From Candidatus Yanofskybacteria bacterium (GTDB lineage: Bacteria > Patescibacteriota > Minisyncoccia > 2-02-FULL-40-12 > IGHO2-12-FULL-4), in assembly GCA_016185525.1 (NCBI GenBank), contig JACPNK010000005.1, forward strand, positions 28,473 through 92,472: a stretch of 64,000 bases of DNA, read 5' to 3'. Below, piece after piece: positions 798 to 55,521 of the stretch. A program made the translations under genes and the position numbers. Positions within the stretch are counted from its first letter, which is position 1, and every line of letters starts with the position of its first letter. The notes beneath the pieces were generated by a model. It did no database searches, had not been told where the DNA came from, and worked only from the letters and a program-made list of their open reading frames with translations.

Positions 798-849
798 TAA
801 CAAAAGCCCTGCCAGGGCTATAAGACCTTAAAACAAATTGGGTTTTTGG

Positions 850-23789: not shown

Positions 23790-24081
23790 GGTTTGTTTCT
23801 TCTTGGCCGGGCTTGTAGATGTATCTTTTGGGGTTAAAAGTAAAACTTATAGCATTGGCTAAGTAAACATACAGAGGAATTTCCGAAACTTTTATCAGCG
23901 CAAGACTCAAGGTGACTGCTATTACCGGTATTGCCAAAACTACAAACCAGCCCGGAGGAACAAGAAAAAATATCAGGAATAACAGCATTCCGCCGATGGT
24001 GATGAAAATAAACTGCTTAATAGTAAAAGGCCCGATTATCTTTTCTTCCGTTTCTATAAATTGTGGAACTTGAAATCTCAT
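23776..24081 (-). CDS. small 2-TM membrane protein (VirB3/PrgI-like position and topology)
   Basis: 101 aa with two hydrophobic helices, immediately upstream of the VirB4-like operon genes. Confidence 0.35.
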   Translation of the reverse strand: MRFQVPQFIETEEKIIGPFTIKQFIFITIGGMLLFLIFFLVPPGWFVVLAIPVIAVTLSLALIKVSEIPLYVYLANAISFTFNPKRYIYKPGQEETNHAPK

Positions 24082-24578
24082 TTATTTCTTAAATCAACGG
24101 TATTGTTTGGATTATTTATACCACCTGTCGCCGGGGCGGAGGATGGAGCTGTTTCTGTTTTCTTTCCAAACTTCTCAATGTGGAGTTTTTTGATGTCTTC
24201 AAGAGCGGGAGTGAAAAGACGGATTAGCTCATTCGCAATTTGTTTTGCTGATTCAGTAGTGATGTCAAGTTTTTCTGCAATTATTTTTACCATGTCGCCA
24301 AGATAAACTTTTGCAAGCAACAAGTCGCGGACAACTCGAGTAATTTCTCGTTTTTGCGGAACAGGGAGGTTAAACTTTGGACCTAGCTCTTCTTCAATAA
24401 ATTCGGCGGTCTCAAAGTCCAACAGAATTTTCTGAATGTTTTTAGTGGGTTCAAGCGTGCTTAAAATATATTTTTCCATTGATCTCTGGTCTGTAAAACT
24501 TTTTATGTCAATTTCGTAAGGTGTGTTGTACTCTCCTTCTTTTGAGAATTGTTGTTGAGTTGTAATGTCAATATCCAT
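24078..24578 (-). CDS. hypothetical protein
   Basis: 166 aa with no TM; the start overlaps the preceding gene. Confidence 0.35.
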   Translation of the reverse strand: MDIDITTQQQFSKEGEYNTPYEIDIKSFTDQRSMEKYILSTLEPTKNIQKILLDFETAEFIEEELGPKFNLPVPQKREITRVVRDLLLAKVYLGDMVKIIAEKLDITTESAKQIANELIRLFTPALEDIKKLHIEKFGKKTETAPSSAPATGGINNPNNTVDLRNK

Positions 24579-24595
24579 AAACTGTAAATTAAGGA

Positions 24596-26671: not shown

Positions 26672-26679
26672 TGCTCAAG

Positions 26680-27918
26680 TTATTGATCTATGGTGGGGAT
26701 AGCGCATTGCTGTTCGCATTCAACTCGTTTATTATTTTCACAAATCTGTTTTTCTGCGGGAGTTGAAAGCGGATTACTGCAACTGGCTGATGCGTTTATG
26801 GCGCAGAAAGAATAGCAGTCATTTTGCGCCCCGCCAGTGTATTGCCCAGTTTGACTAGCGCCTTTGTCTTCGGAACCGGGGCTGACTGACGTGAAACCGG
26901 TTTTGTCCAAAGCAAAATTCGCTAGCTTGTTAATAGCGGCGCTGACTATAGCCATAATTACTTCCGAAAGCTCATCTGAAGTGACCAGCCACTTGGAGTT
27001 GTTATCAAACCATTGTGCCGCGCTTTCACCCAATATTTTTGCCGGGGTTAAAGTTTTACCAAGGAAGTTGCATTGAGCGCCGGCTCCAACGCTAGTTTGA
27101 CCTTGGCATTGGTTCAAACAAGTTTTGTCAGCGTCGCTGACGCATAAATTTTTTCGATTTAAATCAGGAATAATGTTACAGGCTCTTAGCAACGGGTCGT
27201 AACAGTTGTTGTAGCAGACAGTGCTTCTGACATTGGGAGTTCCTCGGCACGAACCTTGCGCTCCGGTAAAACCGCCGCCTCCGACAATTTCGCTTTGTCT
27301 AGCATTTTCTTGGGAGCTTCTTTGTTTATTTAATTCTTCCAAACTTATTGCCAAAGCTCCGGCTAAATTATTTTGCGGTTCCACCAAACGTGACCATGTC
27401 TCCCAGCCGCCGCCTTTTTCAAAACTTTTTTTAAAGTCAGCCCTGACCTTTTCTGGAATAGTGCATTTAATTTTAGTTTGAAATGGTGTCAGAGTGTCTT
27501 GTTTTAGTTCGTCATTAAAATCCGTCTGACCGATATCGACGTACGGAACACTGCTTGTTTGAAAGGCCAGGGCCAACGGCCCTCGTAAGTCGTCGCACAA
27601 AATACCCTTTTGTATAGAATAGTTTAACTGGGTGCGGAATTGATTTTCTCCTATTCTTTGGGCGTCAGCTAGAAACTTTTTCCAATTTTGCACGAAACTG
27701 GGCGCTTGTTGTCCTTTTTCAAGACCCAGGTTGTTTATGGAATTAACAACTCCGTTGCTTAGGTTTGTGAGCAGTCTTCTTGCCAAGGCCCTTGCTATCA
27801 AGTCAAGGCCGAATTCTTTAGTGATGTAAGCGATAGCGGCTGCTCCTTGACTGGCATAAAAAGGCACGCTAAAACCAAGCGCAAATATTAAAACAAGGAT
27901 AGTTATTTTTTTCCTCAT
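26680..27918 (-). CDS. secreted cysteine-rich protein (hypothetical; candidate surface or effector protein)
   Basis: 412 aa; signal peptide plus about 30 Cys in CxxC-like spacing (CYNNCYDPLLRAC, CLNQCQG, CENNKRVECEQQC). Confidence 0.45.
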   Translation of the reverse strand: MRKKITILVLIFALGFSVPFYASQGAAAIAYITKEFGLDLIARALARRLLTNLSNGVVNSINNLGLEKGQQAPSFVQNWKKFLADAQRIGENQFRTQLNYSIQKGILCDDLRGPLALAFQTSSVPYVDIGQTDFNDELKQDTLTPFQTKIKCTIPEKVRADFKKSFEKGGGWETWSRLVEPQNNLAGALAISLEELNKQRSSQENARQSEIVGGGGFTGAQGSCRGTPNVRSTVCYNNCYDPLLRACNIIPDLNRKNLCVSDADKTCLNQCQGQTSVGAGAQCNFLGKTLTPAKILGESAAQWFDNNSKWLVTSDELSEVIMAIVSAAINKLANFALDKTGFTSVSPGSEDKGASQTGQYTGGAQNDCYSFCAINASASCSNPLSTPAEKQICENNKRVECEQQCAIPTIDQ

Positions 27919-28904
27919 TTAGTCAATAAAATAGAAATGTCAAAAAAATCGCTGTCCGGCGGAGTGAGATTATTCGCTTTTATTTTAGCGTTAATTTCAA
28001 GCAGTATCGGCTGGGCCTCAAGGTAAACGGTTTGTAGGTTGCCCAAAACGACCATCTGCTTTAGGGGGTCGTCGGTGGAAAGCGCTATGGAGCGGTAGTA
28101 TAGCTCCAGTTTTTTTAAAAGGGTCAATATCTTTTTATGAATACCGAGCCACTCTCTAGAAACCGAAGAATTATTTATTTCGTCATATGCTTGTTGAAAT
28201 TTGACAGAGTGTTCTAGAAATTTGCTCTTAATTCTCTCTTTTTGCTGGTCGTCATAGATTTCTTCGCTATCGGCCGTTTGGTCGGGAGAAAAAAGCAAAA
28301 CAAGTTCTTTGGGTTGACCTAAAAGAATCTCGGTTATATCTTCTGATATAGCCCGAAAAGCAATATTTAAATAATTTTCCTGTGCCTCTTTTGTGTTTTC
28401 AACTAAGTTTTTGACCTCATCGCCGACATTTACATCTTCCAAAGCTGAAAGAATTGAATAAACAGTGGCGCTAGCCGTTGAATCTACGGATTGAGCGTAA
28501 GTCTGCGAGTTATTGCTTTTTTTCAAATCTCCGCTCAAAACACCTCCAGCAACCAAAGAAGCCAGTCTTTCAGTAGAGTTCATGGAAAGAAACCTTCTTG
28601 TTTTGGCAAGGGAATCGTTATCGGCTTGTGTGGGATTGTGGTCGGAAAAAGCTTCTTCGCCGTCTAAGTAGCCGTCGCCATCTGTATCCGGATTGTATGG
28701 ATCGCTACCCCAAACCGCTTCTTCTGCGTTTTTTAGGCCATCGTGGTCAAAGTCGTCGCTGTCCTGGTAGTCAACTTTTATGCTTTCTGAAACTACCGCA
28801 GTCGCAGGACTGAAAGTTTTGTTTATAAGTATGCCAACTCTGGCCACCACCAAACCGGCGGCTCCAAAAAGTATTACCATCAGGACTTTAATTGATTTGG
28901 TCAT
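27915..28904 (-). CDS. membrane-anchored protein with thrombospondin type 3-like Ca-binding Asp repeats
   Basis: 329 aa; N-terminal TM, DSDDFDHDGLKNAEEAVWGSDPYNPDTDGDGYLDGEEA. Confidence 0.45.
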   Translation of the reverse strand: MTKSIKVLMVILFGAAGLVVARVGILINKTFSPATAVVSESIKVDYQDSDDFDHDGLKNAEEAVWGSDPYNPDTDGDGYLDGEEAFSDHNPTQADNDSLAKTRRFLSMNSTERLASLVAGGVLSGDLKKSNNSQTYAQSVDSTASATVYSILSALEDVNVGDEVKNLVENTKEAQENYLNIAFRAISEDITEILLGQPKELVLLFSPDQTADSEEIYDDQQKERIKSKFLEHSVKFQQAYDEINNSSVSREWLGIHKKILTLLKKLELYYRSIALSTDDPLKQMVVLGNLQTVYLEAQPILLEINAKIKANNLTPPDSDFFDISILLTK

Positions 28905-28937
28905 AGTAGGTTCTAGGTTTCAGGTTCTAGCTTCTAG
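28905..28937. repeat. CTAG-rich repeat (left flank of four-helix-bundle gene)
   Basis: ggttctaggtttcaggttctagcttctag. The blocks are reverse-complementary to those at 29277-29312. Confidence 0.5.
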
Positions 28938-29276
28938 TTTAGAAATTATAACATTTAACATTTTTTGGACTTCTTCTAGTAAAGATGATGATTGTTCAAA
29001 ATCAATTTTTGGATACAGGTCTTTTGATATGATTAGTTGAGTTTCTAGTTCGGCGGCAGAAGAATAAGATATTCTTAAGAATTGCAAGTATTCCTTTAAA
29101 TTTTTGCGTTGTTGACCTTCGGCTATGTTAGAAGGAATTGATACTGCCGCTCTTCTCATTTGAGAGGATAGACCATAAATCTCGTTGAAAGGAAATTTTG
29201 CAGTGTTTTTATATATTTCTTTGACTAGTTCTATTCCTTTTTGCCAAACTATCAGTTCTTTAAATGATTTTATCAT
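28920..29276 (-). CDS. four-helix-bundle protein (23S rRNA intervening-sequence protein family)
   Basis: 118 aa; KELIVWQKGIELVKEIYKNT...RRAAVSIPSNIAEGQQR...SAAELETQL is the diagnostic family pattern. Confidence 0.75.
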   Translation of the reverse strand: MIKSFKELIVWQKGIELVKEIYKNTAKFPFNEIYGLSSQMRRAAVSIPSNIAEGQQRKNLKEYLQFLRISYSSAAELETQLIISKDLYPKIDFEQSSSLLEEVQKMLNVIISKLEART

Positions 29277-30939
29277 GCCTAGAACCTAGAACCTGAAAGC
29301 TAGAAGCTATCAGTACACTTAAACTAGCCAGTAAAATTGGCCAATCTCCTAGTTTATTATACAATGTTTTCTTGCTATTTAATACAATGTCGCCTGTTAA
29401 TATCTGAAATCCCTGCACTTGGAACGGATAAGTGCTTTCAGCACGAGAGTGCAAATCCGTTCCAAGTGAGGGGTCAAAACCCGTTTCGGAAGCTTCTCTT
29501 GAGATTTTTCCCGAGCCCGAAACCACAAAAGATGGTCCATAATTTGCGGCATAGATTAGGTATTTGTTGTTTTCAGCGGCGCGCAAAGAAGCCATAGCTT
29601 TAACTTGTCTGATTAAGTCTTTGGAACCGTTAGCAAAAGCGAAACTGCCTTGCACAGCTATGAGTTGTCCGCCAGACAAGGAAATATTTCTGGCCAAAGA
29701 CGGCGAAGAAATATCGGAACAAACCAAAGCCCCTACCCCCACCTGAGGACTGTCCTCAGTAAGATTGGGAAAATTAATAGCGGAGGGTGGCTGATGACCG
29801 CTTTGTAGCTCTTCAAAATTTTTAAGCTCTTCGGAATCAATGCCTAAAACTTTATCTAACAGGCGGAAGAGATAAGGCGCGTATTCCCCTCCCGGAGTCA
29901 AGAGTTTTTTGTCATAATCTCCAACCACGCCGCTTTTGGAATCCAAGTATATGGTTTTAGATTTTTTCAGAAAATTTTCCTGGATATGCGAGTTGTCTAT
30001 GATGGCGGTTTTGGAAGAAAATAGATTGTTGAAAAAAAGGCCGACATTCAAAGTATTGCCGAATAAACTTATGTTAGTAAAAAAATTGCTGGCTTCGGGA
30101 AAAACTATCAGTTTGGTTTCGGGTTCTTCTCTACTTATTTTATTCATCAGTTCAAGCTGTTTTTTGAAAAAAGAAAGCTGTTCTTGGGGGCTGTAGTTTT
30201 TTTTGCTTGGGATATAACTTTGAATGACCGCTACTTTAATCTTTTCGGCATTATTGTTGGAAGGAACGAACCAGTCAAATGGAAAGTAAGAAAGAGAAGT
30301 TAAAACAGCGATAAAAATCCAAAGTTTTTTGTATTGTCTTTTTTCCAAAAAAAGAAAAATTAAAACGGCGGCGAGAGCGACAAAAAAAGTAACGCCGTAA
30401 ATGCCAAGCAGAGACGATAACTTAAGAATCAAAGTGTTAGCATGCAAGTTGTAAGCAAGATTGCCGGCTGTCCAATCGGGTGAAATTGTATTGCCCGGGC
30501 TGAACCAGAGAATTGAAATTATAAATGATCTTAAATACTCAAACCAAACAAATATTGAAGGAAAAACAATCAAAGATGTCCAGCTTGTTTTCTTCTCAAT
30601 TTTCTTGAAAAGCCAAAATGCCGTTGCCCAGAGAAATGACATTGCCAGAGCGGTCAAAAGCCAAGCGAAAGCTATCAAACCGGCGGCAAGGTAGTGATTT
30701 TCAAAACCGAGTCCTTCAAGAGGATAAGTGTCCCAAAACCATCTGAAGACGAATAAGAAATAAACCAAACCAAACCAAAAGCCGGTTGAAAAAGCTTTCT
30801 GCGGGCGGATTTCAAGAAAAACAAAGAGAAGTATTAAAGCAAAAAATACCAGCCAGCCTAAGCCGAAAAAAGGCAAAGAAAAAGCCAAAATTAAACCGCC
30901 TAAAACTGCAAAGATAAGATTTGGCTTAATTTTCTCCAT
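29260..30939 (-). CDS. lnt: apolipoprotein N-acyltransferase-like (8-TM domain plus carbon-nitrogen hydrolase domain)
   Basis: 559 aa; CN-hydrolase triad candidates are E in IVFPEAS, K in DKKLLTPGGEYAP and C in GALVCSDI. The hydrophobic N-terminal half is typical of Lnt. Confidence 0.65.
   Translation of the reverse strand: MEKIKPNLIFAVLGGLILAFSLPFFGLGWLVFFALILLFVFLEIRPQKAFSTGFWFGLVYFLFVFRWFWDTYPLEGLGFENHYLAAGLIAFAWLLTALAMSFLWATAFWLFKKIEKKTSWTSLIVFPSIFVWFEYLRSFIISILWFSPGNTISPDWTAGNLAYNLHANTLILKLSSLLGIYGVTFFVALAAVLIFLFLEKRQYKKLWIFIAVLTSLSYFPFDWFVPSNNNAEKIKVAVIQSYIPSKKNYSPQEQLSFFKKQLELMNKISREEPETKLIVFPEASNFFTNISLFGNTLNVGLFFNNLFSSKTAIIDNSHIQENFLKKSKTIYLDSKSGVVGDYDKKLLTPGGEYAPYLFRLLDKVLGIDSEELKNFEELQSGHQPPSAINFPNLTEDSPQVGVGALVCSDISSPSLARNISLSGGQLIAVQGSFAFANGSKDLIRQVKAMASLRAAENNKYLIYAANYGPSFVVSGSGKISREASETGFDPSLGTDLHSRAESTYPFQVQGFQILTGDIVLNSKKTLYNKLGDWPILLASLSVLIASSFQVLGSRHDKII
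29277..29312. repeat. CTAG-rich repeat (right flank), partner of 28905-28937
   Basis: cctagaacctagaacctgaaagctagaagcta; it overlaps the 3-prime end of the lnt-like ORF. Confidence 0.5.
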
Positions 30940-31694
30940 TCATTTAATGTCAGCGACTCCGGACGCCTTTTTTCGTCAATGCCGGCTTCTTGAAGCTTTT
31001 TTCCAAGGGCCGCCCTTGGAAGGCTTAGTCCGGCGGAGAGACTGTTTAATAATTGTTTTCTTTTGCCGTTGAAAGCCAAACGGGCTAATTTCATAATTTT
31101 TTCAACTTGTTCTTTTTCCGTCGGACCTTGGTCTTTAGGTGTCATTTTTATTAAAGCCGAATCAACTTTCGGTACTGGCCGGAAATTTCCTTTGGAAATA
31201 TATTTTAAAATTTTTGCGTCTGCGTAGAACCGAACCGACAAAGCCAGCAAACTCATTTTGGAAGGTTTAGCGACTATTCTTTGGGCTACTTCTTTCTGTA
31301 CCATGAACAAAATTAACTTTGGTGAAGGCCATTCGCTAAGCACTCTTCTTAAAAGTTGCGATGTCAAATAATAAGGGATATTCCCCACTACCTTGTATTT
31401 CCAAGGTTCGACCTTGATCAGATTAAGGTCGAACCTTAATATGTCTCCCTCAATCATTGTAACATTTTTTTGATTTTTAAACTTGGTTTGTAGAACCGGA
31501 ACTAAGTTTCGGTCTTTTTCAACGGCAATAATTTTTGCTCCGGTTTCCGCCAGTTTTTCGGTCAACAGACCTGTGCCGGCGCCGACTTCCAGCACAGTGT
31601 CGCTAGCTGAAATTTCAGCCATTTCAACTATGGATTTAAGTATACTGGCGTTTCTTAGAAAATTTTGACCCAATTTTCTTGACGGCCTTATCAT
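30900..31694 (-). CDS. rsmA: 16S rRNA (adenine1518/1519-N6)-dimethyltransferase
   Basis: 264 aa; KLGQNFL and SAM motif VLEVGAGTGLLT. Confidence 0.9.
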   Translation of the reverse strand: MIRPSRKLGQNFLRNASILKSIVEMAEISASDTVLEVGAGTGLLTEKLAETGAKIIAVEKDRNLVPVLQTKFKNQKNVTMIEGDILRFDLNLIKVEPWKYKVVGNIPYYLTSQLLRRVLSEWPSPKLILFMVQKEVAQRIVAKPSKMSLLALSVRFYADAKILKYISKGNFRPVPKVDSALIKMTPKDQGPTEKEQVEKIMKLARLAFNGKRKQLLNSLSAGLSLPRAALGKKLQEAGIDEKRRPESLTLNEWRKLSQILSLQF

Positions 31695-45985: not shown

Positions 45986-46013
45986 AATAACACGAGAACG
46001 GTTATTGCGTTGT

Positions 46014-46044
46014 ACCCCGAGAGTTAATTCTCGGGTCTTTTTTT
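46014..46044 (+). terminator. rho-independent terminator
   Basis: cccgagagttaattctcggg followed by tcttttttt. Confidence 0.55.
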
Positions 46045-46091
46045 ATGAAACTTCTGATGGACTTCTTTCAACCGGCTCTTCTCGTCAAGGT

Positions 46092-47048
46092 TCAACCTTG
46101 ACGTTTCTTGTGAAACTTTTTATGTATTTCTTTCAAACCGCTGTCGGTAACATGAGTATAAATTTGAGTTGTCGTTACTGAAGAGTGGCCGAGTATCGCT
46201 TGGACAGAGCGGATATCGGCGCCGTTTCTTAAAAGGTCGGTGGCCATACTATGGCGGAGCGAGTGCGGTGAAACTTTTTTACCGACAATTCCGGCGCGTG
46301 TTGCGTGCTTTTTTATTATCCTTTGTATGCTTCGGGGACTTAATCTTAGGTTTTCGTATTTGCCAAAAGCTTGGTCTTTGGGAATCCGAATAAAAAGTGC
46401 TGGGTCGGCGTCACTGCGTTTTTTTAAAAAGCTGCTGATTGATTTTTGGGCATCGTCAGATAAGAAGACCAACCTGATTTTTGAGCCCTTGCCTTTAACC
46501 GATATCTCTCCCCTGTTCAAATCCACCTTGTCTGTTTCCAAAGAGCAGAGCTCTGATACGCGCAAGCCGGTGCTGAACAAAGTTTCCAAGATAGCTTTAT
46601 CGCGCAAATCAGACAAGTTGTCGTCTTTAGGCGAAGCCAGAAGCCTTGCCAATTCGTTTGACTCCAGAAAATCTATATGCCTGTCTTCCTGCTTGCCCAG
46701 TTCTATTTTTTCCGGCGAGACGGATTTTATCTCTCTCTTGGATAAATATTTCAAAAAAGCCCGTATGGCGATTATGTGGTAGTTTTGAGTAACTTTTTTT
46801 AGAGACTCGCCGTGATTGTCAGTCAGCCGATTTAAATAGATCCGGAACTTTCTAATCAAATCTTCGGAAATCTGGCTAGCCGAACCGACTTTTGCAAAAT
46901 TCAAAAACCGGTTGAGATAATGGCCATAGTTTTCCACCGTCTTCGACGAGCGGTTTTTCTCAATCTCCAGATACTCCAGAAAATCGTTTTTTAATTGCTT
47001 AACATCTGCCACGCATATAATCATACCCCACAAACCCAAGTCGCACAA
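46092..47048 (-). CDS. tyrosine site-specific recombinase (XerC/XerD or integrase family)
   Basis: 318 aa; N-terminal core-binding domain; C-terminal HSLRHSMATDLL...GHSSVTTTQIYTHV (R-H-R-Y catalytic residues). Confidence 0.8.
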   Translation of the reverse strand: MCDLGLWGMIICVADVKQLKNDFLEYLEIEKNRSSKTVENYGHYLNRFLNFAKVGSASQISEDLIRKFRIYLNRLTDNHGESLKKVTQNYHIIAIRAFLKYLSKREIKSVSPEKIELGKQEDRHIDFLESNELARLLASPKDDNLSDLRDKAILETLFSTGLRVSELCSLETDKVDLNRGEISVKGKGSKIRLVFLSDDAQKSISSFLKKRSDADPALFIRIPKDQAFGKYENLRLSPRSIQRIIKKHATRAGIVGKKVSPHSLRHSMATDLLRNGADIRSVQAILGHSSVTTTQIYTHVTDSGLKEIHKKFHKKRQG

Positions 47049-47085
47049 TAACTTTCTGACACCGGGTGTCAGAAAGTTATTGTGT
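47044..47085. promoter_or_regulatory. 42 bp perfect palindrome at the recombinase start / rpsO upstream region
   Basis: cacaataactttctgacacc g ggtgtcagaaagttattgtg (20 bp arms). Confidence 0.35.
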
Positions 47086-47167
47086 TGTGGTATTGTGTAA
47101 AATCGAAACTTGCCTCAAAACCAAATCCGTGATATCTTTGTCAATATAGTCAAGTTGGTTTTCCGCA

Positions 47168-47434
47168 ATGATTAATCCTAAAGACAAAACAAAAATTATA
47201 AAAAAGCACTCAATTCACGAGACTGATACCGGTTCGGCGGCTGTTCAGGTGGCTTTGTTTAGCGAAGAAATTGAGAGGCTAACCAAGCATCTCAAGAAAC
47301 ACGTCAAAGACAACAGCTCCCGCGCCGGTCTTTTGAAAATGGTCTCCAAAAGACGCCGGCTTTTGGAATATCTCAAAAAAGAGTCGCCAAAAAAATACGC
47401 TAAAATTCTCAAAGAACTCGGACTCAAAAAATAA
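47168..47434 (+). CDS. rpsO: 30S ribosomal protein S15
   Basis: 88 aa; HETDTGSAAVQVALFSEEI...LLKMVSKRRRLLEYLKK. Confidence 0.9.
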   Translation: MINPKDKTKIIKKHSIHETDTGSAAVQVALFSEEIERLTKHLKKHVKDNSSRAGLLKMVSKRRRLLEYLKKESPKKYAKILKELGLKK

Positions 47435-47964
47435 TGCAGAAAGGCCGCAAACCAAAAATCTCTGAAATTACTTCTGAACACCAAAGGGTGGGTGTTTTTG
47501 TTGACGCCCAGAACATGTACCATTCGGCAAAAAATCTTTATCATGCTAAGGCTAACTTCAAAAAAATCTTGGAAGCGGCGGTCGGCGACCGTCAGTTAAT
47601 CAGGGCTTTTGTTTATGTCATCAAGACTGAAACCGGCGAAGAAAAAGCTTTTTTGGAGGCGCTGGAAAAAAGCGGTTACGAAATCAAGGTCAAAGACCTC
47701 CAAATCTTTCCCGGAGGCATGAAAAAAGCCGACTGGGACGTCGGCATGGCGATTGACGCTATCATTTTGGCGGACAAAATTGATGTGGCGGTCTTAGTTA
47801 CCGGCGACGGCGACTTTATTCCTCTGGTTGAATATCTCCGCGTCAACCGTGGCCTCAAAGTTGAGGTCGTCTCTTTTGGCCGCAGCACTTCGGCCAAGCT
47901 CAAAGAAACGGTGGATGTTTTCACCGACTTAGGCGAGGACCCTAAAAAGTTTCTAATGTATTAA
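47434..47964 (+). CDS. NYN-domain (LabA/PIN-like) protein
   Basis: 176 aa; VGVFVDAQNMYH...VLVTGDGDFIPLVEYLR. The start overlaps the rpsO stop. Confidence 0.7.
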   Translation: MQKGRKPKISEITSEHQRVGVFVDAQNMYHSAKNLYHAKANFKKILEAAVGDRQLIRAFVYVIKTETGEEKAFLEALEKSGYEIKVKDLQIFPGGMKKADWDVGMAIDAIILADKIDVAVLVTGDGDFIPLVEYLRVNRGLKVEVVSFGRSTSAKLKETVDVFTDLGEDPKKFLMY

Positions 47965-48117
47965 CCAAAACTGGAAAGATTTAATTAGGCATTTAAGTCC
48001 CCTTTTGGGGATTTTTAAACACCCAAAACTTGTAGCCGAGGGATGTAACATTCGGGAGGGTTGGAGTATTATACTTAATGATATCCAAAAACATCTGCCG
48101 ACCGGCAGACTGCGAAT

Positions 48118-48639
48118 ATGGAGCAAAACGAAGAAAAAATGCTTGTAAAAAGAGCCCGGAGCGGAGACCGCCAAGCGCTGAGTCTGCTTTGGGATGCTCT
48201 AACGCCTAAGCTTTTTGGTTATCTCGTCAATACCACCAAAAACAAACCGCTGGCCGAAGACTTGCTTCAAACAACCTGGCTTAAGGCAATTGATAATCTT
48301 TCCAAATTTAAGCAGCAGGACGCGGGTTTTAGCGCTTGGCTTTTTGCCATAGCCCGTAACGAATACCGTCAACACTGGCGAAAGCGTAAAAACGAAGTGT
48401 CTTTTGAACCAGCCGAACACGACCAGCCGGATAGCAGCCAAGGGTCTCCGGAAGCAAAGATTTTTGTAGAACAAGCTCTTGCCTATCTTTCTGATGACGA
48501 CAGGGAGCTTATCAGGCTCCGATATATTGTCGATTTACCGATTAAAGATATTGCCTTAATCCTCAAACTTAATTTTGTAACAGTGCGAGTGCGCATACAT
48601 CGGGCCTTAGCCAAAATGCGCGCCGCTATTACTTCTTAA
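48118..48639 (+). CDS. ECF-subfamily RNA polymerase sigma factor
   Basis: 173 aa; region 2 (LLQTTWLKAIDNL...FSAWLFAIARNEY) and region 4 HTH. Confidence 0.8.
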   Translation: MEQNEEKMLVKRARSGDRQALSLLWDALTPKLFGYLVNTTKNKPLAEDLLQTTWLKAIDNLSKFKQQDAGFSAWLFAIARNEYRQHWRKRKNEVSFEPAEHDQPDSSQGSPEAKIFVEQALAYLSDDDRELIRLRYIVDLPIKDIALILKLNFVTVRVRIHRALAKMRAAITS

Positions 48640-48641
48640 AT

Positions 48642-49793
48642 ATGGCTAATTTTTTTAGGACAATTGAAGAGGTTCTTGCTGACTGGGGACGCAGGCAACG
48701 TCAACTTCCCTCTCGCAACGAACTGTTAAAAAGCGAAATCTTAAACAAGCTACAGGCTACAGAGCCGATGCTGCCGAAAATTTTACCGCAACACTGGCAC
48801 ACTCCTTGGCTTAGTTTTGCTTTTACCAGCTTGGCACTGATTTCCTTGTTTGTCGGAAGTCTTTTGCCTCTTGGAACTTCTACTACGGTCAAAACTCTAA
48901 ACAACAAGGACGTAGAACTTTCAAGTCCGTTTTCAAATTCGTTGAGCATCCGAAAGGGCGATTCAATTTTCTTCACTCCGCCACAAGGTTATGAAATTCC
49001 AATAACTGATAACCGTGAGTTTACAAGAACCGACTACAGCGCCAATATCCGTACTCGCCGCGTAGATGAACTTGTTGAAAATATTGGCGATACCGTCCGT
49101 TTTCTTGGCGGGCGGGTGGATAGTTCCAACAGCTCTAAGCAATATGGCCATGTCAGTTTTGTGGTGCCGGCAGACAAATTTGAATCTTTCAGGCGTTCGG
49201 TCAAAAGATTGGCAGGCGGCAGGTTTTTGATAGAAAATATCTACACCGAGAATCTTCTTCCGCAAAAGCAATCCATTGAACAACAGCAAAAAAATGCGGG
49301 GGAAACACTTACCAAACTTAGAAGCGAAAAAAACAGTCTTATCTCAAACCACAAAAAAGTCGTTGCTCAGATCCAGTCAAAGATAAACGAAGTTGACAAG
49401 AGGATCACCGCGGTTAGAATTAAGCTTGACGTCACCAACGATCCGTCGCAAAGGGAGATTCTTAAAGCTGAAGAAAGAAGGCTTTTGGACGAAAAGAATA
49501 CCCTTGAAGCTGAACTTGCTAACGAAAACTCTAATTACTCAAGCAAGCTTTATTCGCTTGATTTGCAAATCCGAGAAAATGAAGCAATTTTAGACAGTGC
49601 TTTTAAAGAAGACCAAAAACTTGTTGATACTGTTGCCACCGTCCGCGGGACTGTTTCTCTTGGTTGGATAAGCGTTTGGGAAATTATCCGGCTTTATGTT
49701 CCCGTAAACTTTGGCTTTGTGGTATTCGGCATTGCCGCAATTGCCGCTTATCTTATTCACCGCCGACGTTCATATTTATTTTTGCCGGACTAA
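48642..49793 (+). CDS. DUF4349-like membrane protein, putative anti-sigma partner
   Basis: 383 aa; N-terminal cytoplasmic segment, TM, periplasmic domain with coiled coil, C-terminal TM. Co-transcribed position after the ECF sigma gene. Confidence 0.45.
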   Translation: MANFFRTIEEVLADWGRRQRQLPSRNELLKSEILNKLQATEPMLPKILPQHWHTPWLSFAFTSLALISLFVGSLLPLGTSTTVKTLNNKDVELSSPFSNSLSIRKGDSIFFTPPQGYEIPITDNREFTRTDYSANIRTRRVDELVENIGDTVRFLGGRVDSSNSSKQYGHVSFVVPADKFESFRRSVKRLAGGRFLIENIYTENLLPQKQSIEQQQKNAGETLTKLRSEKNSLISNHKKVVAQIQSKINEVDKRITAVRIKLDVTNDPSQREILKAEERRLLDEKNTLEAELANENSNYSSKLYSLDLQIRENEAILDSAFKEDQKLVDTVATVRGTVSLGWISVWEIIRLYVPVNFGFVVFGIAAIAAYLIHRRRSYLFLPD

Positions 49794-49845
49794 AGAGGGC
49801 TCTCCGCCCTCTTTAAATTTTAGAAGTAATGTGGTAAAATTTTTT

Positions 49846-50079
49846 CAAATGCCCACCCCCGCTATTACCAAAAAATTAACCCAAAAAGGTGACTTTGTAA
49901 TCATTCCTCGTAAAGGATACGAGGAGTTTTTAGCTTGGCGAGGAACAAACAAGAGAATAGAGACTTACACTCCGACACCTGCCGAGAAAAGGGCTATTGC
50001 CAAAGCAAAACGAAACTTTACCAAAGGAAATTATGTAACTTGGGAAGAACTGAAACATGAGTTGGCAAGTAATCGTTGA
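49846..50079 (+). CDS. type II antitoxin (copy 1), paralog of 52212-52424
   Basis: MPTPAITKKLTQKGDFVIIPRKGYEEFLAWRG...; the first 25 aa are identical to copy 2. The track ORF is 5-prime extended. Confidence 0.5.
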   Translation, partial: QMPTPAITKKLTQKGDFVIIPRKGYEEFLAWRGTNKRIETYTPTPAEKRAIAKAKRNFTKGNYVTWEELKHELASNR

Positions 50080-50082
50080 TAA

Positions 50083-50219
50083 ATCAGCCAGAAAACAACT
50101 CCAGCGTTTACCAAAAAGAGGTTTCCAGTATTTACAGAATTTTTTACACAATTTATTTTAAAGAAAGGATAATTTACATTTTTGAAATCAAGCGTCGAAC
50201 CACGACTACTTATTCGTAA
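50083..50219 (+). pseudogene. RelE/ParE toxin remnant (internally deleted)
   Basis: It retains 5-prime and 3-prime DNA similarity to relE at 52428-52679 (...gaaatcaagcgtcgaaccacgactacttattcgtaa) but is about 115 nt shorter. Confidence 0.5.
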
Positions 50220-51041
50220 ATGAAAAACCAAAAAGGATTCGCTCTTGTTCCTGTAATCTTGGTGCTTATCATCGCTGGCATGGGCATCTGGTTTTTGCTT
50301 ACCAAAAGCCTCGCTCCGGATCAGCTCCGACAATATGTTAAAGACGGCAAAATAGACCGAGATTTTGCATTTTGGTTAGGAAAAAATGAAAGCATGGACG
50401 CACTTGTTATTTTCAAGAGTAATGATGAAAAGAAAAGATTTTTAAACACTTTTTCTAAAAATGACTACATCCTTTTGGAGGACTACGGTGGATTCGAAAC
50501 GGCCTATATAACAATCCCAAACATGGATGCCGCCGGTAGAATTTTATCAGATTCAGGAGTAGTAAAGTTTTCACCATACGGATGGGCTTTTTCGCAATTT
50601 GACGTCAAGGCTAGAGCAAAAACAAAAGCGTATCGTGATGATAAATACGGTTACGAAGTTAAAACCTCCAACTTTTACGCTCCTATCAAGAAACTATCGT
50701 CGACAGCTTTAAGAATAGGAGATGAGGCTATATTCCAGCAAATTTCAGTATTTGATAACCAAACGATTGGGGGCAGGATAAAGACAGCAGACATTCAAGA
50801 GATTTTAAAAACTGTTCGTCCGGGGTTAAGCTTAAGTAGATCAATTAAGAAATCTACTGTGGAGTATTATCTGGGAGGTAAAAAAGGTAAAGCGGTTATT
50901 TTTACCTTGGCACCGGAAGACAAGTACACTTATATTCTTGTGGAAAAAGATAACAAATTATACGAATTTTTCACTCCCGGTGATCTAAAAAATGGCGGGT
51001 CAGATGCAGAAACCTACTCCACCTTTAAATTTATTAAGTAA
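50220..51041 (+). CDS. pilin-like secreted protein, paralog P1 (MKNQKGF leader, C-terminal TFKFIK)
   Basis: 273 aa; prepilin-like N-terminus MKNQKGFALVPVILVLIIAG without Glu5; ends STFKFIK. Confidence 0.5.
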   Translation: MKNQKGFALVPVILVLIIAGMGIWFLLTKSLAPDQLRQYVKDGKIDRDFAFWLGKNESMDALVIFKSNDEKKRFLNTFSKNDYILLEDYGGFETAYITIPNMDAAGRILSDSGVVKFSPYGWAFSQFDVKARAKTKAYRDDKYGYEVKTSNFYAPIKKLSSTALRIGDEAIFQQISVFDNQTIGGRIKTADIQEILKTVRPGLSLSRSIKKSTVEYYLGGKKGKAVIFTLAPEDKYTYILVEKDNKLYEFFTPGDLKNGGSDAETYSTFKFIK

Positions 51042-51316
51042 TGTGGTATAGTGAACCCATGCCAAAAGTCAATAAAAAAATCTACTCTTACTCGGTATTT
51101 TATGAATCGGATCCGGACGGCGGTTATATTGTAACCGCACCAACCCTACCCGGTTGTTATAGCCAAGGCGATACACTAGAAGAAGCCGAAAAAAATATCA
51201 GAGAAGCGATCGAGCTTTACATAGAAAGTTTGGTTGCCCACCGTGAACCTATTCCGAAGGAAGTAAAATCTTTTCAGGGCACTGTGGTAATTCCTGTTTC
51301 ACCCCCTGCTCGATAG
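51041..51316 (+). CDS. hicB: HicB-family antitoxin
   Basis: YSVFYESDPDGGYIVTAPTLPGCYSQGDTLEEAEKNIREAIELYIE. Confidence 0.75.
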   Translation: MWYSEPMPKVNKKIYSYSVFYESDPDGGYIVTAPTLPGCYSQGDTLEEAEKNIREAIELYIESLVAHREPIPKEVKSFQGTVVIPVSPPAR

Positions 51317-51317
51317 C

Positions 51318-51548
51318 ATGGTTAAGATTCCTGCTTTAACTGCCAAAAAAGTCATCAAAGTTCTCAAAAGAATAGGATTTTTAGAAGATCGTCAAAAAGG
51401 TAGCCATCTAATTTTGTTTAACTCAAAAACCAACACGAGAACAGTTGTGCCAGTTCACGCTGGAAAAACACTGAAAAAGCCTCTTGTACGAGCAATTATT
51501 AATGATACTAAATTAACCGTCAAAGAATTTGTAGAGTTACTAAAATGA
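51318..51548 (+). CDS. hicA: HicA-family mRNA interferase toxin
   Basis: 76 aa; KVLKRIGFLEDRQKGSHLIL...VVPVHAGKTLKKPLVRAIIN. Confidence 0.75.
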   Translation: MVKIPALTAKKVIKVLKRIGFLEDRQKGSHLILFNSKTNTRTVVPVHAGKTLKKPLVRAIINDTKLTVKEFVELLK

Positions 51549-52192
51549 AAAACCAAAAAGGATTTTCTAAAATAGCGGTGATTATTATTGCTGCAATTGT
51601 GATCGCAGTTGCCGGCTGGCGGTATTTATGGAGACCATACACGAATATCTACCCAGTTACTCCCACTCCGACAGTTAGTTCAACTACTGACCCCACCGCT
51701 GGCTCGCCCCGTGACGAAATTTTACGGGGCTGGCAAACTTACCGCAATGAGCAGTATGGGTTTGAGTTCCAAACTCCCGCCAACTGGATTATTGAAAATG
51801 AAAGTCGAGACGTCGGAAACGGTGTGGCGTTTATTACTGATTTTAAATCCCCGGACTTCAAACAGGCTGGGGATATGATGAATGAAGTGGATGTTTTGAG
51901 TGGCTATTTGCTCAATATTCATTTACAATATCCTTCAAATATTAAAACTTTTAGCGAACTGACAGAATTTTTGAAGCTCGGTCGTGGCGGCCACATTCAG
52001 TTGAGTGAGAAATTGATTTTGGTAGATGGTGAAAAGACCATCTTACATGACTTAGGAGATTATCGGCAAGGTAGCTTGAAGGATGTGCATTTTCTTCACG
52101 GGGATAAATGGTTCACTATTACCTTTTCTTACGCGAATTACGAAGATGATCAATTCAACCAAATCCTCTCCACCTTTAAATTTATTAAGTAA
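51545..52192 (+). CDS. pilin-like secreted protein, paralog P2
   Basis: 215 aa; MKNQKGFSKIAVIIIAAIVIAVAG...; central WQTYRNEQYGFEFQTPANW shared with P3; ends STFKFIK. Confidence 0.5.
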   Translation: MKNQKGFSKIAVIIIAAIVIAVAGWRYLWRPYTNIYPVTPTPTVSSTTDPTAGSPRDEILRGWQTYRNEQYGFEFQTPANWIIENESRDVGNGVAFITDFKSPDFKQAGDMMNEVDVLSGYLLNIHLQYPSNIKTFSELTEFLKLGRGGHIQLSEKLILVDGEKTILHDLGDYRQGSLKDVHFLHGDKWFTITFSYANYEDDQFNQILSTFKFIK

Positions 52193-52211
52193 TATGGTAA
52201 AATTTTTTCAA

Positions 52212-52424
52212 ATGCCCACCCCCGCTATTACCAAAAAATTAACCCAAAAAGGTGACTTTGTAATCATTCCTCGTAAAGAATACGAGGAGTTTTTGAAATT
52301 TAACTCTAGGCCGGTATATAAACCGACAAAAACTGAGTCGCGTATGATCAAACGAGCCAGAGAGGATTTTAAAAAAGGCAACTACATAACTCTGGAGGAG
52401 CTAAAAAAGAAATTAGGGTTTTGA
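52212..52424 (+). CDS. type II antitoxin (copy 2), partner of relE
   Basis: MPTPAITKKLTQKGDFVIIPRKEYEEFLKF... Confidence 0.55.
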   Translation: MPTPAITKKLTQKGDFVIIPRKEYEEFLKFNSRPVYKPTKTESRMIKRAREDFKKGNYITLEELKKKLGF

Positions 52425-52427
52425 TTA

Positions 52428-52679
52428 ATGTGGAGCGTTGTTGTAAGAAAATCTGCCGAAAAACAGTTGGATAGACTATCCAAATCCGCTCAAGTCAAAA
52501 TAATTCTTGCTCTGGAGACTTTCAAAAGCAATCCATTTAGCGGCGATATCGCCAATCTCAAAGACAGTATCTGGCGCCGGCGTGTCGGCTCCTATCGCAT
52601 TACATTTGAACTGATCAAATTCAGACGGATAATTTATGTAATTGAAATCAAGCGTCGGACCACAACTACTTATTCGTAA
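52428..52679 (+). CDS. relE: RelE/ParE-family toxin
   Basis: 83 aa; KSAEKQLDRLSKSAQVKIILALETFKSNPF...RRRVGSYRITFEL...VIEIKRR. Confidence 0.75.
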   Translation: MWSVVVRKSAEKQLDRLSKSAQVKIILALETFKSNPFSGDIANLKDSIWRRRVGSYRITFELIKFRRIIYVIEIKRRTTTTYS

Positions 52680-52680
52680 A

Positions 52681-53280
52681 ATGAAACAACTCTTTCAACA
52701 ATTTCAGAATCAAAAAGGCTTTGCCATCATCCCTCTCATAGTTATCCTCGCTTTAGCCGGCATTGGGGTTTATTGGTTTACCTCCGGAAGAACAATTCCG
52801 GGTGTATCTTGGCTTATGCCAACCCCAGATCCGACTGCTGGGTGGCAGACATACAGAAATGAGCAGTATGGGTTTGAGGTGAAGTATCCGGAGGGGTGGC
52901 AAATAAATGAAAATAATAGTCCGCTAACTTCACAATGGGTTCAAGTATTTTTAAACTCTAATCAGTTACAATCACAGAAAGAACCCCAGGTTCTAGACGA
53001 TTTTGAGATCAAAGTAAGCAAAGAATACAAACCAGGGTGGGAAAATTATTTTTTTGACCACAGTTCTAACGGTGAAATCACAATAAATAATGTCTATTGG
53101 AAAACCTTTTTGTTGCCAACTGGTACCGGTGGAGACGCGGCGTCAGGACAGACTTTTTTACCAGTTTTCGGACTTCAGTCGGTTCATAATAACTCTCTTT
53201 TTTCAATAAAATTTTTTAATCAAACCAATTTAACATCTTTACAAAACCAAATCCTCGCCACCTTTAAATTTATTAAGTAA
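52681..53280 (+). CDS. pilin-like secreted protein, paralog P3
   Basis: MKQLFQQFQNQKGFAIIPLIVILALAG...; WQTYRNEQYGFEVKYPEGW; ends ATFKFIK. The track ORF starts at 52642; the likely start is 52681, just after the relE stop. Confidence 0.5.
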   Translation: MKQLFQQFQNQKGFAIIPLIVILALAGIGVYWFTSGRTIPGVSWLMPTPDPTAGWQTYRNEQYGFEVKYPEGWQINENNSPLTSQWVQVFLNSNQLQSQKEPQVLDDFEIKVSKEYKPGWENYFFDHSSNGEITINNVYWKTFLLPTGTGGDAASGQTFLPVFGLQSVHNNSLFSIKFFNQTNLTSLQNQILATFKFIK

Positions 53281-53424
53281 TGTGGTAGAGTGCTTTTATT
53301 AACTTTGACAAGTAAGTTTTGCGGGGAGGAACGGAAGTAATGGGGCTTTGGCCAAAGCGTTCAAAAAGTTGAGCTTTTTGGCCAGAATCAGTTACTCTCC
53401 TCTCGTTTACTTGTTACACAATTT

Positions 53425-55521
53425 GTGGATATAAAAACATATTCCGAAGAGTTTGCGGGCAAGAAGCTCTTTGTTGAAATTGGCCGTTTGGCCGGACAGG
53501 CCAACGGCTCTTGCCGTGTGCAGTACGGCGATTCTACGGTGCTGGTAACAGCCACGATGTCGGCTCATCCAAAAAGCGCCGACTACTTTCCTTTGTCGGT
53601 GGACTACGAAGAAAAGTATTACGCCGCCGGAAAGATCAAGGGCTCAAAATGGATCAAGCGCGAAACCCGTCCGTCGGAGGAAGCGATTCTCACCAGCCGG
53701 GTAATTGACCGCTCAATCAGGCCAAGGTTTGACCACAACATAAGAAACGAGGTACAGGTTGTGCCAACTGTCTTAACTTTTGACGGAGTCAACGACCCCG
53801 ACATAGTGGCGCTTTTTGGCGCTTCTTTGGCTTTGATGATATCTGACATTCCTTTTGCTGGCCCGGTGGCTGGCGTTCGGATTGGTAAAATCGCGGGCAA
53901 ATTAGTTATAAACCCAACTTATGCCGAACGCACCCAAAGCGACTTTGACATAATTGTCGCCGGCACGGCCAACAAAATAAATATGATTGAGGCCGGCGGT
54001 AAGATTATCCCGGAAAAAGACATGGCTGAAGCTATAAATCATGGCTTCAAAGAAATACAAAAATTAACCAAACTACAGCAGAAAATTGCGGATGATTTTA
54101 AGGTTGAGAAGAAAAAACTGGACATTTTCAGCCACGACGAGGCTTTGCACAAGCTAGTCAGCGATTTTGTTGCGCCAAGACTTGAAAAGGTGCTTTACAC
54201 GCCTCACAAACAAGAGTATGTGGAAGGCCTTCACAGAACACAGGACGAGCTTGCTGAATATATCAAGGAACAATTCAAAGAGCATCCGGAGTTAGATGGC
54301 AAGCTTAAAGAAGCAAACGTTATCTTTGAAGAAGAAATTGACCGGATCGTCCACAAAAATATTTTGGAGTCGGAAAAAAGACCGGATGGCAGAAAAGTTG
54401 ATGAACTCCGGGCAATTAACGCTGAAGTTGCCGTTCTCCCCCACTCTCACGGCACCGGCTTGTTTAACCGAGGCACGACTCAAGCGCTATCGTCACTTAC
54501 TCTAGCGGCACCGGGCATGGAGCAATGGATTGAAACCATGGAAATTGAACTGACTAAAAAACGCTTTATGCATCACTATGTTTTTCCGCCTTTTAGTGTC
54601 GGCGAGGTTGGCAGAATGGGTTTTGCCGGCCGAAGAGAAATTGGCCACGGCGCTTTGGCTGAAAGAGCTTTGGAGCCGATTATCCCTTCCAAAGAAGAAT
54701 TTCCTTATACAATCAGGGTTGTTTCTGAAATCCTATCTTCCAACGGCTCATCTTCTATGGCCTCGGTTTGCGGCGCCTCTTTGGCTTTGATGGACGGCGG
54801 TGTGCCGGTCAAAACGCCGGCGGCGGGAATTGCCATGGGTTTAATGTTTTCCGCCGAAGGCGATAAGTATAAAGTCCTAACCGATATTCAAGGTCCGGAG
54901 GACCACCATGGCGATATGGACTTAAAAGTTGCCGGCACTAGAGATGGCATTACGGCTATGCAGATGGATGTAAAAATTGAAGGCATCACGCCGGAAATAC
55001 TGGAAAAGGCGCTAGAACAAACCAAAAAAGCAAGGTTAGAAATACTGGATCATATGGCCAAGGCCATATCAGAGCCAAGAAAAGAACTCTCATCTTTTGC
55101 ACCTAGGGTTAAAATTATTAAAATAAATCCGGAAAAGATTCGCACCGTAATCGGTCCGCAGGGCAAAATGATAAACGAAATTATAGACAAAACCGGCGTG
55201 CAAATTGACATTGAAGACGACGGCTCGGTGTTCATAACTTCAGACAGCGCCGAAGGCATGAAAAAGGCAATCTTGTGGATTGAAGATATAACTTACGAAG
55301 CCAAACCGGGCGACGAGTTTGACGGCAAAGTTGTAAAAATTATGGATTTCGGGGCTTTTGTTGAGTTTAAACCCGGACAAGACGGCATGGTCCATGTTTC
55401 TGAAATTTCAAACGAGCATATCCGCCGGCCGTCAGATGTTCTAAAAATTGGACAAAGCGTGCATGTGCGTGTGAAAAACATCGACGAGTATGGTAGAATA
55501 AACTTATCCATGAAAAAATAA
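53425..55521 (+). CDS. pnp: polyribonucleotide nucleotidyltransferase (PNPase)
   Basis: 698 aa; two RNase PH domains, KH (GPQGKMINEII) and S1 (GQSVHVRVKNID). Apparent GTG start. Confidence 0.9.
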   Translation: MDIKTYSEEFAGKKLFVEIGRLAGQANGSCRVQYGDSTVLVTATMSAHPKSADYFPLSVDYEEKYYAAGKIKGSKWIKRETRPSEEAILTSRVIDRSIRPRFDHNIRNEVQVVPTVLTFDGVNDPDIVALFGASLALMISDIPFAGPVAGVRIGKIAGKLVINPTYAERTQSDFDIIVAGTANKINMIEAGGKIIPEKDMAEAINHGFKEIQKLTKLQQKIADDFKVEKKKLDIFSHDEALHKLVSDFVAPRLEKVLYTPHKQEYVEGLHRTQDELAEYIKEQFKEHPELDGKLKEANVIFEEEIDRIVHKNILESEKRPDGRKVDELRAINAEVAVLPHSHGTGLFNRGTTQALSSLTLAAPGMEQWIETMEIELTKKRFMHHYVFPPFSVGEVGRMGFAGRREIGHGALAERALEPIIPSKEEFPYTIRVVSEILSSNGSSSMASVCGASLALMDGGVPVKTPAAGIAMGLMFSAEGDKYKVLTDIQGPEDHHGDMDLKVAGTRDGITAMQMDVKIEGITPEILEKALEQTKKARLEILDHMAKAISEPRKELSSFAPRVKIIKINPEKIRTVIGPQGKMINEIIDKTGVQIDIEDDGSVFITSDSAEGMKKAILWIEDITYEAKPGDEFDGKVVKIMDFGAFVEFKPGQDGMVHVSEISNEHIRRPSDVLKIGQSVHVRVKNIDEYGRINLSMKK

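Follow-up and report, generated by a model that had tools for sequence, protein, structure and literature searches.

The stretch of DNA considered here is a 64-kb window of the genome of a Candidatus Yanofskybacteria bacterium, a member of the candidate phyla radiation (CPR), and the element under study is an array on its plus strand at 49794-53424 (coordinates are window positions, except where a related contig is named). Between rpsO and pnp lie three toxin-antitoxin (TA) operons, each tightly trailed by a gene for a PsbP-like protein (P1, P2, and P3), and a short repeat, termed the junction (copies J0 to J3), recurs along the array. The array and the gene downstream of it comprise the following features, in which the -35 and extended -10 elements are putative.

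49794-49845, plus strand: J0, a variant junction, with a hairpin (AGAGGGC/GCCCTCT) at 49794-49812, TTTAAA at 49812-49817, a gap of 17 nucleotides (nt), and TGGTAAAAT at 49832-49840
49849-50079, plus strand: antitoxin gene A1, an intact open reading frame (ORF) of 76 residues
50057-50219, plus strand: degraded relE, a toxin pseudogene
50220-51041, plus strand: P1, 273 residues
51017-51052, plus strand: J1, the last codons of P1 (STFKFIK and stop) plus TG TGGTATAGT; -35 at 51024-51029, extended -10 at 51044-51052
51059-51316, plus strand: hicB antitoxin gene, 85 residues, PF15919
51318-51548, plus strand: hicA toxin gene, 76 residues, PF07927
51545-52192, plus strand: P2, 215 residues
52162-52203, plus strand: J2, the last codons of P2 (ILSTFKFIK and stop) plus TA TGGTAAAAT; -35 at 52175-52180, extended -10 at 52195-52203
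52212-52424, plus strand: antitoxin gene A2, 70 residues
52428-52679, plus strand: intact relE (RelE/ParE superfamily), 83 residues
52681-53280, plus strand: P3, 199 residues
53250-53291, plus strand: J3, the last codons of P3 plus TG TGGTAGAGT; -35 at 53263-53268, extended -10 at 53283-53291
53292-53424, plus strand: 5' leader of pnp, 133 nt, with a long hairpin
53425-55521, plus strand: pnp

The order proposed in a first-pass annotation of this DNA, namely antitoxin, degraded relE, and P1, followed by hicB-hicA and P2, followed by antitoxin, intact relE, and P3, is borne out by the ORFs and by family searches. The toxin stop codon and the P start codon abut or overlap in all three units (TAAATG at P1, ATGA at P2, and TAAAATG at P3), and the three TA modules and three P genes found in the window all lie inside the array; P genes were sought with a motif scan of all ORFs, and screening of ten other small ORFs in the window yielded no further TA module. 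The products of hicB and hicA, genes 1 nt apart, match PF15919 (53.7 bits) and PF07927 (64.1 bits), both over the cut-off, and the pair is predicted to be a type II HicAB module; gene callers also give a 91-residue form of HicB starting at 51041. The intact relE, whose product matches the RelE-like toxin family phrog_1213 (6.9e-16) and scores 21.5 bits against Pfam ParE_toxin, just below the 23-bit cut-off, starts 3 nt after the end of A2, and A2 and relE are likewise classed from their sequences as a type II module of the RelE/ParE superfamily. No family match was obtained for A1 (Pfam and NCBIfam) or A2; A1 is designated an antitoxin because of its position upstream of relE, and the two proteins are identical at 27 of their first 28 residues. 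The degraded relE has lost approximately 90 nt internally, and its 34-residue N-terminal ORF and its C-terminal piece are in different frames.

Units 1 and 3 are mosaics of near-identical ends and divergent interiors. The segment 49811-49931 is 96% identical to 52174-52294 over 121 nt, from the junction to 83 nt inside the antitoxin coding sequence, such that the antitoxin 5' ends, previously described as identical, are in fact near-identical. Likewise, the common 3' end that had been noted for the relE remnant and the intact relE extends over the last 54 nt at 89% identity. Between these boundaries (96-100% identity at 49811-49931 and 89% at the end of relE), the interiors agree at only approximately 40-65%, and the earlier description of the locus as an array built by repeated duplication or recombination is supported insofar as its tandem, repeated units have homogenized boundaries.

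The 25-nt core of the junction, TTTAAATTTATTAAGTAATGTGGTA, occurs four times with three or fewer mismatches (at 49812, 51024, 52175, and 53263), in every case on the plus strand, against an expectation of zero from 100 shuffles; no minus-strand copy is present in the window within three mismatches. With the copies set in register, similarity extends for up to 52 nt, and the earlier observation of a sequence recurring after P1, P2, and P3, with a variant near 49807, is confirmed. The junction spans approximately 40 bp and combines the last 9-11 codons of a P gene (NQILSTFKFIK) with 14 non-coding bases (TAA nn TGGTAnAnT). When the 3' ends of P-family genes from twelve loci are compared, the coding half is a conserved C-terminal motif that distant members encode with synonymous changes, and the non-coding half is confined to the window and two related loci, one in the congeneric genome GCA_964479745.1 (L005) and one on a JGI metagenome contig (L010). 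As NQILSTFKFIK is kept across distant homologues with synonymous differences, the coding part of the junction is attributable to protein constraint. Across the last 11 codons, P2, P3, and the corresponding L005 gene (P0) agree at every synonymous site, although the whole proteins are just 37-42% identical. The spacing of TAA-nn-TGGTAnAnT is the same in seven copies from three genomes, before five different downstream genes, and the similarity of these copies ends directly after the -10 hexamer, whatever gene comes next; alignment of the copies shows that their homology boundaries vary.

J0 differs from the remaining copies in having, in its upstream part, a terminator-like hairpin (-9.6 kcal/mol, z -3.3) that closes the preceding DUF4349 gene, and this copy may be what is left of a degenerated P-gene 3' end (CTC TCC GCC CTC TTT AAA TTT TAG). 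No conserved counterpart upstream of the P start codons, a "left junction," was found past the ATG itself, and the likeness between the 3' ends of hicA and the NYN-domain gene amounts to short C-terminal motifs. A search of 46000-54000 for structured RNAs of Rfam returned four chance-level matches, all far under gathering scores and none convincing. A phage origin was considered and rejected, as neither the junction motif nor a P-family relative was found in viral contigs. The first-pass annotation had set two observations against its own proposal, namely junction similarity confined to the coding 3' ends and related genomes with a single unduplicated copy. Conservation of non-coding bases is present, which counts against the former, although it covers just 14 nt past the stop codon; the latter is approached by the syntenic relative L005, which carries a single intact P gene and a relic.

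The junction also reads as a sigma-70 promoter, wherein the FK codons (TTTAAA) supply the -35 box and are followed, after 17 nt, by the extended -10 element TGgTAnAnT. J0, J1, and J2 pass a sigma-70 scan with the TG extension and 9/12 matches (-10 TAAAAT or TATAGT), and J3 (-10 TAGAGT) scores 8/12, one match short. Canonical TTGACA / TGnTATAAT sites are present elsewhere in the window, which makes such a promoter plausible in this genome. In five TA modules, i.e., A1 (8 nt), hicB (6 nt), and A2 (8 nt) in the window and hicB in both L005 and L010, the antitoxin gene starts 6-9 nt past the -10 box, and these first ATGs are not preceded by a Shine-Dalgarno sequence. This spacing suggests leaderless antitoxin mRNAs, which would be transcribed from a putative promoter in the junction. 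From the -35 box of J3 through the pnp leader, the window is 100% identical to L005 over approximately 190 nt, whereas the flanking genes are 83-87% identical; J3 is accordingly regarded as the putative pnp promoter, and the pnp leader would mark pnp as the gene that the junction promoter served ancestrally. The leader itself (L005 5175-5307), which is 100% identical in the two genomes and belongs to no Rfam family, folds into a hairpin of -47.4 kcal/mol (z -4.9) and is probably autoregulatory for pnp. In L010, a gene pair at approximately 660-800 (minus strand), located after a decayed P gene, has its own extended -10 element, TGCTATAAT, 7 nt before the first ATG, and the second gene of the pair resembles by eye an AbiEii nucleotidyltransferase; leaderless TA operons may be common in this group.

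All three P proteins had been described as paralogous and pilin-like. The first term applies to P2 and P3, which are clear paralogues (E 9e-17), whereas P1 is a distant family member recognizable over its last 80 residues only (hhalign 96.9%, residues 194-273); besides its N-terminal membrane helix, P1 has an extra domain, and its PsbP-like C-terminal part is divergent. The AlphaFold model of P2 (mean predicted local distance difference test score 73) comprises a membrane helix (residues 9-28), a low-confidence disordered linker (34-48), and a separate alpha/beta domain. Foldseek comparison of this model with the PDB returned 2lnj and 2xb3 (both CyanoP) and 4rti (PsbP) at the top (E 5e-6 to 1.5e-5, target TM score 0.48-0.64), and the best matches are cyanobacterial and plant PsbP (E 5e-6 to 1e-4); the modeled domain is assigned on this basis to the PsbP/CyanoP fold. 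P2 and P3 score 20.7 and 19.1 bits, respectively, against PF18933 (PsbP_2), below its cut-off of 27 bits, and many P2 homologues carry PF18933. The pilin description was not sustained. P1 reaches 13.4 bits against the N_methyl model (cut-off 21.2 bits) and P2 and P3 do not match it, position +5 is occupied by P, A, and P in P1, P2, and P3 and never by Glu, and the structural matches are to PsbP rather than to pilins; pilin identity was rejected on these three grounds in favor of an N-terminal membrane helix joined to a PsbP-like domain.

An N-terminal MxNQKGF motif, like the C-terminal NQILSTFKFIK, occurs family-wide. The former, MxNQKG followed by F and a hydrophobic helix, resembles a prepilin-peptidase site that lacks Glu at +5, and with the G-F pair present the P proteins could conceivably be cut by prepilin peptidase. 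The family is very large in the CPR (42,440 clusters at 50% identity and E <= 1e-3), and many members contain 2-5 tandem domains. The array proteins are akin to PsbP_2 (PF18933) and CyanoP-fold proteins, including the multi-domain CPR members, in their fold, in the PF18933 matches of their homologues, and in the tandem repetition of the domain; by contrast with the multi-domain proteins, each tandem copy in the window has its own gene, and TA operons intervene.

Comparison with related loci indicates that the interval varies in content. The genes upstream of the array are as follows.

46092-47048, minus strand (opposite to the array): Xer-type tyrosine recombinase gene, approximately 2.7 kb upstream of the array
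47168-47434, plus strand: rpsO
47434-47964, plus strand: NYN-domain gene
48118-48639, plus strand: gene for an extracytoplasmic function (ECF)-type sigma factor
48642-49793, plus strand: DUF4349 membrane protein gene

In L005 the order is xer, rpsO, NYN, P0 (coupled directly to NYN), a junction, hicB/hicA, a 35-nt relic of a P-gene 3' end with its junction, and the pnp leader; P0, to which P2 is the counterpart in both position and sequence, is the only intact P gene. The HicB and HicA proteins of L005 are 33% and 42% identical, respectively, to those of the window. The sigma/DUF4349 pair (48118-49793), in which DUF4349 is a possible anti-sigma partner, is absent from L005, where a P gene occupies its place, and its presence or absence is one more insertion or deletion of the same hotspot. 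The syntenic contig, CAYZNJ010000008.1, is labeled "Candidatus Saccharibacteria," whereas P2 of the window is 100% identical to a protein annotated in a MAG labeled "Candidatus Yanofskybacteria"; with DNA that is 83-87% identical, one of the two labels is likely wrong. L010 contains a P-gene 3' end, a junction, and a divergent hicBA, after which come a P2-like pseudogene, with an internal deletion and a 3' end that matches P2 at 92% identity, and, last, the AbiEii-like pair. Its TA proteins are 36-40% identical to those of the window, whereas its junction is nearly identical in nucleotides. The two loci, in which the same junction stands beside different hicBA modules and P genes have been deleted or have decayed, support the view, implied by the earlier comparison with variable regions, that the site is variable.

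Beyond these loci the junction was sparse: an exact-motif scan of species-representative genomes returned the L005 contig only, and a codon-degenerate scan of JGI metagenomes returned L010 only. A distant contig (L011) shows the order hicB-hicA-P without the junction, and the five other P-family members whose surroundings were checked, on six contigs, have housekeeping genes and no TA module as neighbors. A further P-family gene sits between the N- and C-terminal halves of a split transketolase (L016 4001-4621; L017 3583-4203), and P-family genes therefore lodge inside housekeeping operons too. On five contigs from different samples (L018 3652-4341, minus strand, and L019-L022), a 229-residue P gene is convergent with vapB-vapC, which constitutes a second recurrent adjacency of P and TA genes. 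Metagenomic reads had been suggested as a source of alternative cassette orders. Logan contigs from five runs reproduce the arrangement of the window and break at the repeats, and the sole candidate for another order is a contig (L002) in which an identical P2 is followed by convergent vapCB, the departure from the window order falling inside the junction. As proof of an alternative order it was downgraded, given that its join falls within a 32-mer common to P-gene ends and that the same P/vapCB pairing occurs in L018-L022; the exact VapC of L002 occurs on that contig only.

Built on the anatomy, mosaic identity, conservation across relatives, folds, and family assignments described above, the reading that we favor, with somewhat better than even confidence, is that a variable spot in the rpsO-NYN...pnp interval has undergone a lineage-specific expansion into a tandem TA-P array at a promoter-bearing repeat. 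Each unit would consist of a junction promoter, a leaderless antitoxin-toxin operon, and, coupled to it in translation, the gene for a PsbP-like protein anchored in the membrane, and the promoter, which would first have driven pnp, would now drive the next TA-P unit from each of its copies. Because every unit ends in the same approximately 40 bp, unequal crossing-over between junction copies would be possible and could add or delete whole units, with units gained in the window and lost in L005. Gene conversion would keep the ends alike (the junction together with approximately 85 nt at the start of the antitoxin gene, and approximately 54 nt at the end of relE), while the interiors would diverge, decay, as relE of unit 1 has done, or give way to other TA modules. 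Such replacement of the TA module behind the promoter would probably rely on homology at two places, the junction and the conserved P-gene 5' end, and the recombination route is taken to be homologous rather than site-specific. The independent decay of toxin and P gene and the habitual tandem duplication of the P family are in line with this reading. TA modules probably persist through their addictive nature as P genes come and go. In both L005 and L010 the TA modules outlast the P genes, which fits such addiction and lends some support to the idea, put forward at the outset, that TA modules may plausibly stabilize the units of the array.

Several points weigh against this account. Consensus and spacing are the sole basis for reading promoter use and leaderless starts here, TTTAAA makes a weak -35 box, and TAGGGT, the -10 box of L010, is a poor one. 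The junction is known from two independent related loci only (L005 and L010), such that the evolutionary model rests on few points, and the one apparent alternative arrangement at the locus, L002, may be an assembly chimera. In addition, the near-identity of the L010 junction is poorly explained by vertical descent alone when the accompanying TA proteins are 36-40% identical; it calls for either strong selection on the DNA itself or units exchanged horizontally, and a site-specific mechanism would fit as well; the analyses used do not separate homologous from site-specific recombination.

One competing account is that the locus has no special DNA-level feature and consists of ordinary tandem P paralogues, whose ends are alike through protein constraint and codon bias and between which TA modules were inserted by chance. 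The family-wide N- and C-terminal protein motifs, the QILS codons shared by several distant members, and the large size and tandem duplication of the family are all in keeping with this account, which is nevertheless unlikely in view of the fixed spacing of the non-coding TAA-nn-TGGTAnAnT, the synonymous-site identity of otherwise divergent P genes, the 121-nt tract, 96% identical, that begins in the junction and continues into the antitoxin genes, and the complete identity between genomes from J3 through the pnp leader. A functional three-gene system, wherein the PsbP-like protein acts as an envelope sensor or trigger or is a product switched by the TA promoter, is slightly less probable still. 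Such a system would accommodate the tight coupling of stop and start codons in all three units, the confinement to the array of all TA modules and P genes found in the window, the return of the hicB-hicA-P order in L010 and the distant L011, and the recurrence of P convergent with vapBC. Toxin, antitoxin, and P gene decay independently, however: relE is dead beside an intact P1, and P is deleted or a pseudogene beside an intact hicBA in L005 and L010, which argues against an obligate three-gene system. Moreover, three unrelated toxin families (RelE, HicA, and VapC) pair with the same kind of P protein, the five other P-family members checked have no TA neighbor, P0 of L005 is coupled to NYN rather than to a TA module, and none of the nine proteins examined matched a PADLOC defence model above noise.

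Of similarly low probability is a site-specific account, wherein the junction is an attachment site at which promoterless TA or TA-P cassettes are captured and exchanged by a host tyrosine recombinase acting in trans, e.g., the Xer-type enzyme encoded 2.7 kb upstream of the array; the locus would then resemble integron cassettes, Acinetobacter pdif modules, or Xer-exploiting elements. Every module is flanked by direct junction copies, TA modules of different families in related genomes stand equally far from the junction, and hicBA of L005 lies between a full junction and a 35-nt P relic, much as attL and attR would after integration at a gene 3' end, although such a relic can also arise by internal deletion of a P gene, as in L010. 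The observation that this account fits best is the near-identity of the L010 junction despite very divergent TA proteins. Against it, DNA folding of both strands revealed no attC-like hairpin in J1-J3 (-0.7 to -6.1 kcal/mol, z -1.6 to +1.7), and no recombinase-type dyad is present in these copies (the best 9-12-nt arms are 60-70% complementary, a value equaled by 70-93% of shuffles). A Xer/dif-type site has approximately 28 bp, in which a 6-8-bp spacer separates two inverted 11-bp arms; a dif consensus had no match in the window within five mismatches, and a Xer/dif site was rejected on the dyad and consensus results. The enzyme itself scores approximately 242-245 bits as XerD/XerC/XerA and 133 bits as an integron integrase (cut-off 265 bits), and its gene is syntenic in L005, as expected for a housekeeping function. 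No IntI-type integrase was found in the window, as the first-pass annotation had stated, and the sole tyrosine recombinase nearby is of the Xer type. The homology boundaries also differ between copies, with no single crossover point.

The resemblance to integrons or shufflons that had been suggested was not supported as a mechanism. An integron with attC sites was rejected on the folding of J1-J3 and the typing of the recombinase, and a shufflon or invertible segment on the finding that all junction copies are direct repeats, none inverted; long inverted repeats bracketing the units were likewise not found. None of the defining features of the known site-specific systems is present. The more particular proposal that the junction serves as a capture site for promoterless, leaderless TA or TA-P cassettes, mobilized by a host recombinase in trans, is very improbable; the approximately 40-bp sequence, both promoter and gene end, would then form an integron-like cassette platform without IntI or attC.

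Each of several known systems shares part of this anatomy. Vibrio superintegrons carry small cassettes in the same orientation, with repeated separators and interspersed TA modules that are thought to protect the array from deletion. The array is alike in its same-orientation units, repeated separator, and interspersed TA modules, whereas it lacks IntI, its repeat is a gene end plus promoter-like sequence rather than an attC-like fold, and its unit boundaries are imprecise. Acinetobacter pdif modules have no recombinase of their own, often encode TA systems, and are bounded by 28-bp sites with XerC and XerD arms in dyad arrangement and alternating orientation. Such modules, and other Xer-dependent elements, share with the window small, recombinase-free TA modules, short conserved flanks, and a Xer-type gene nearby; the window junction, by contrast, has no dyad, and all of its copies are direct repeats. 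In Neisseria minimal mobile elements, different cassettes occupy the space between the same conserved flanks and are swapped by transformation and homologous recombination. The present locus likewise has varied content between conserved flanks (the 3' end of NYN or P on one side and the pnp leader on the other) and no mobility gene inside, and exchange via flank homology would be the most economical route; it differs in that its flanking homology holds a short internal repeat that would allow tandem amplification.

The locus is also comparable with chromosomal TA hotspots or variable islets. Structural-variant hotspots associated with hicAB have been described in ANME-1 archaea (PMC13385816). 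As in such hotspots, several TA families (hicAB, relE/parE, and vapBC) occur at one site, and the content differs between close relatives through insertions and partial deletions. The Yanofskybacteria locus differs in its regular unit, in which a TA operon stands 6-9 nt after a repeated putative promoter embedded in a PsbP-like 3' end and is coupled to the next P gene. No description of such an arrangement of promoter/gene-end repeat, TA module, and PsbP-like gene was found in the literature searched. The locus combines a TA hotspot with a tandem array of paralogues, whose shared joint of putative promoter and gene end is unusual, and its probable mechanism is more ordinary than the one first suggested.

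The movement and build-up of chromosomal TA modules are poorly understood, and CPR genomes are very small yet TA-rich. A repeat that is at once a gene end and a promoter would offer ready expression to any TA operon placed behind it, as well as homology for amplifying, deleting, or swapping units. The locus further shows a very large CPR family of PsbP-like, membrane-anchored proteins diversifying in such a setting, where the ends are conserved and the bodies hypervariable. Should both the promoter and the recombination reading prove true, strain-level variation in Yanofskybacteria could usefully be tracked by the rpsO-pnp interval, which would also be a small natural system for the study of TA turnover without mobile-element machinery. 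Elsewhere in the window, a PrgI-family ORF (23776-24081, minus strand) lies among large minus-strand genes (1248 residues, 691 residues, and others) in a cluster at approximately 19433-31694, which suggests a type IV secretion or conjugation-like system.

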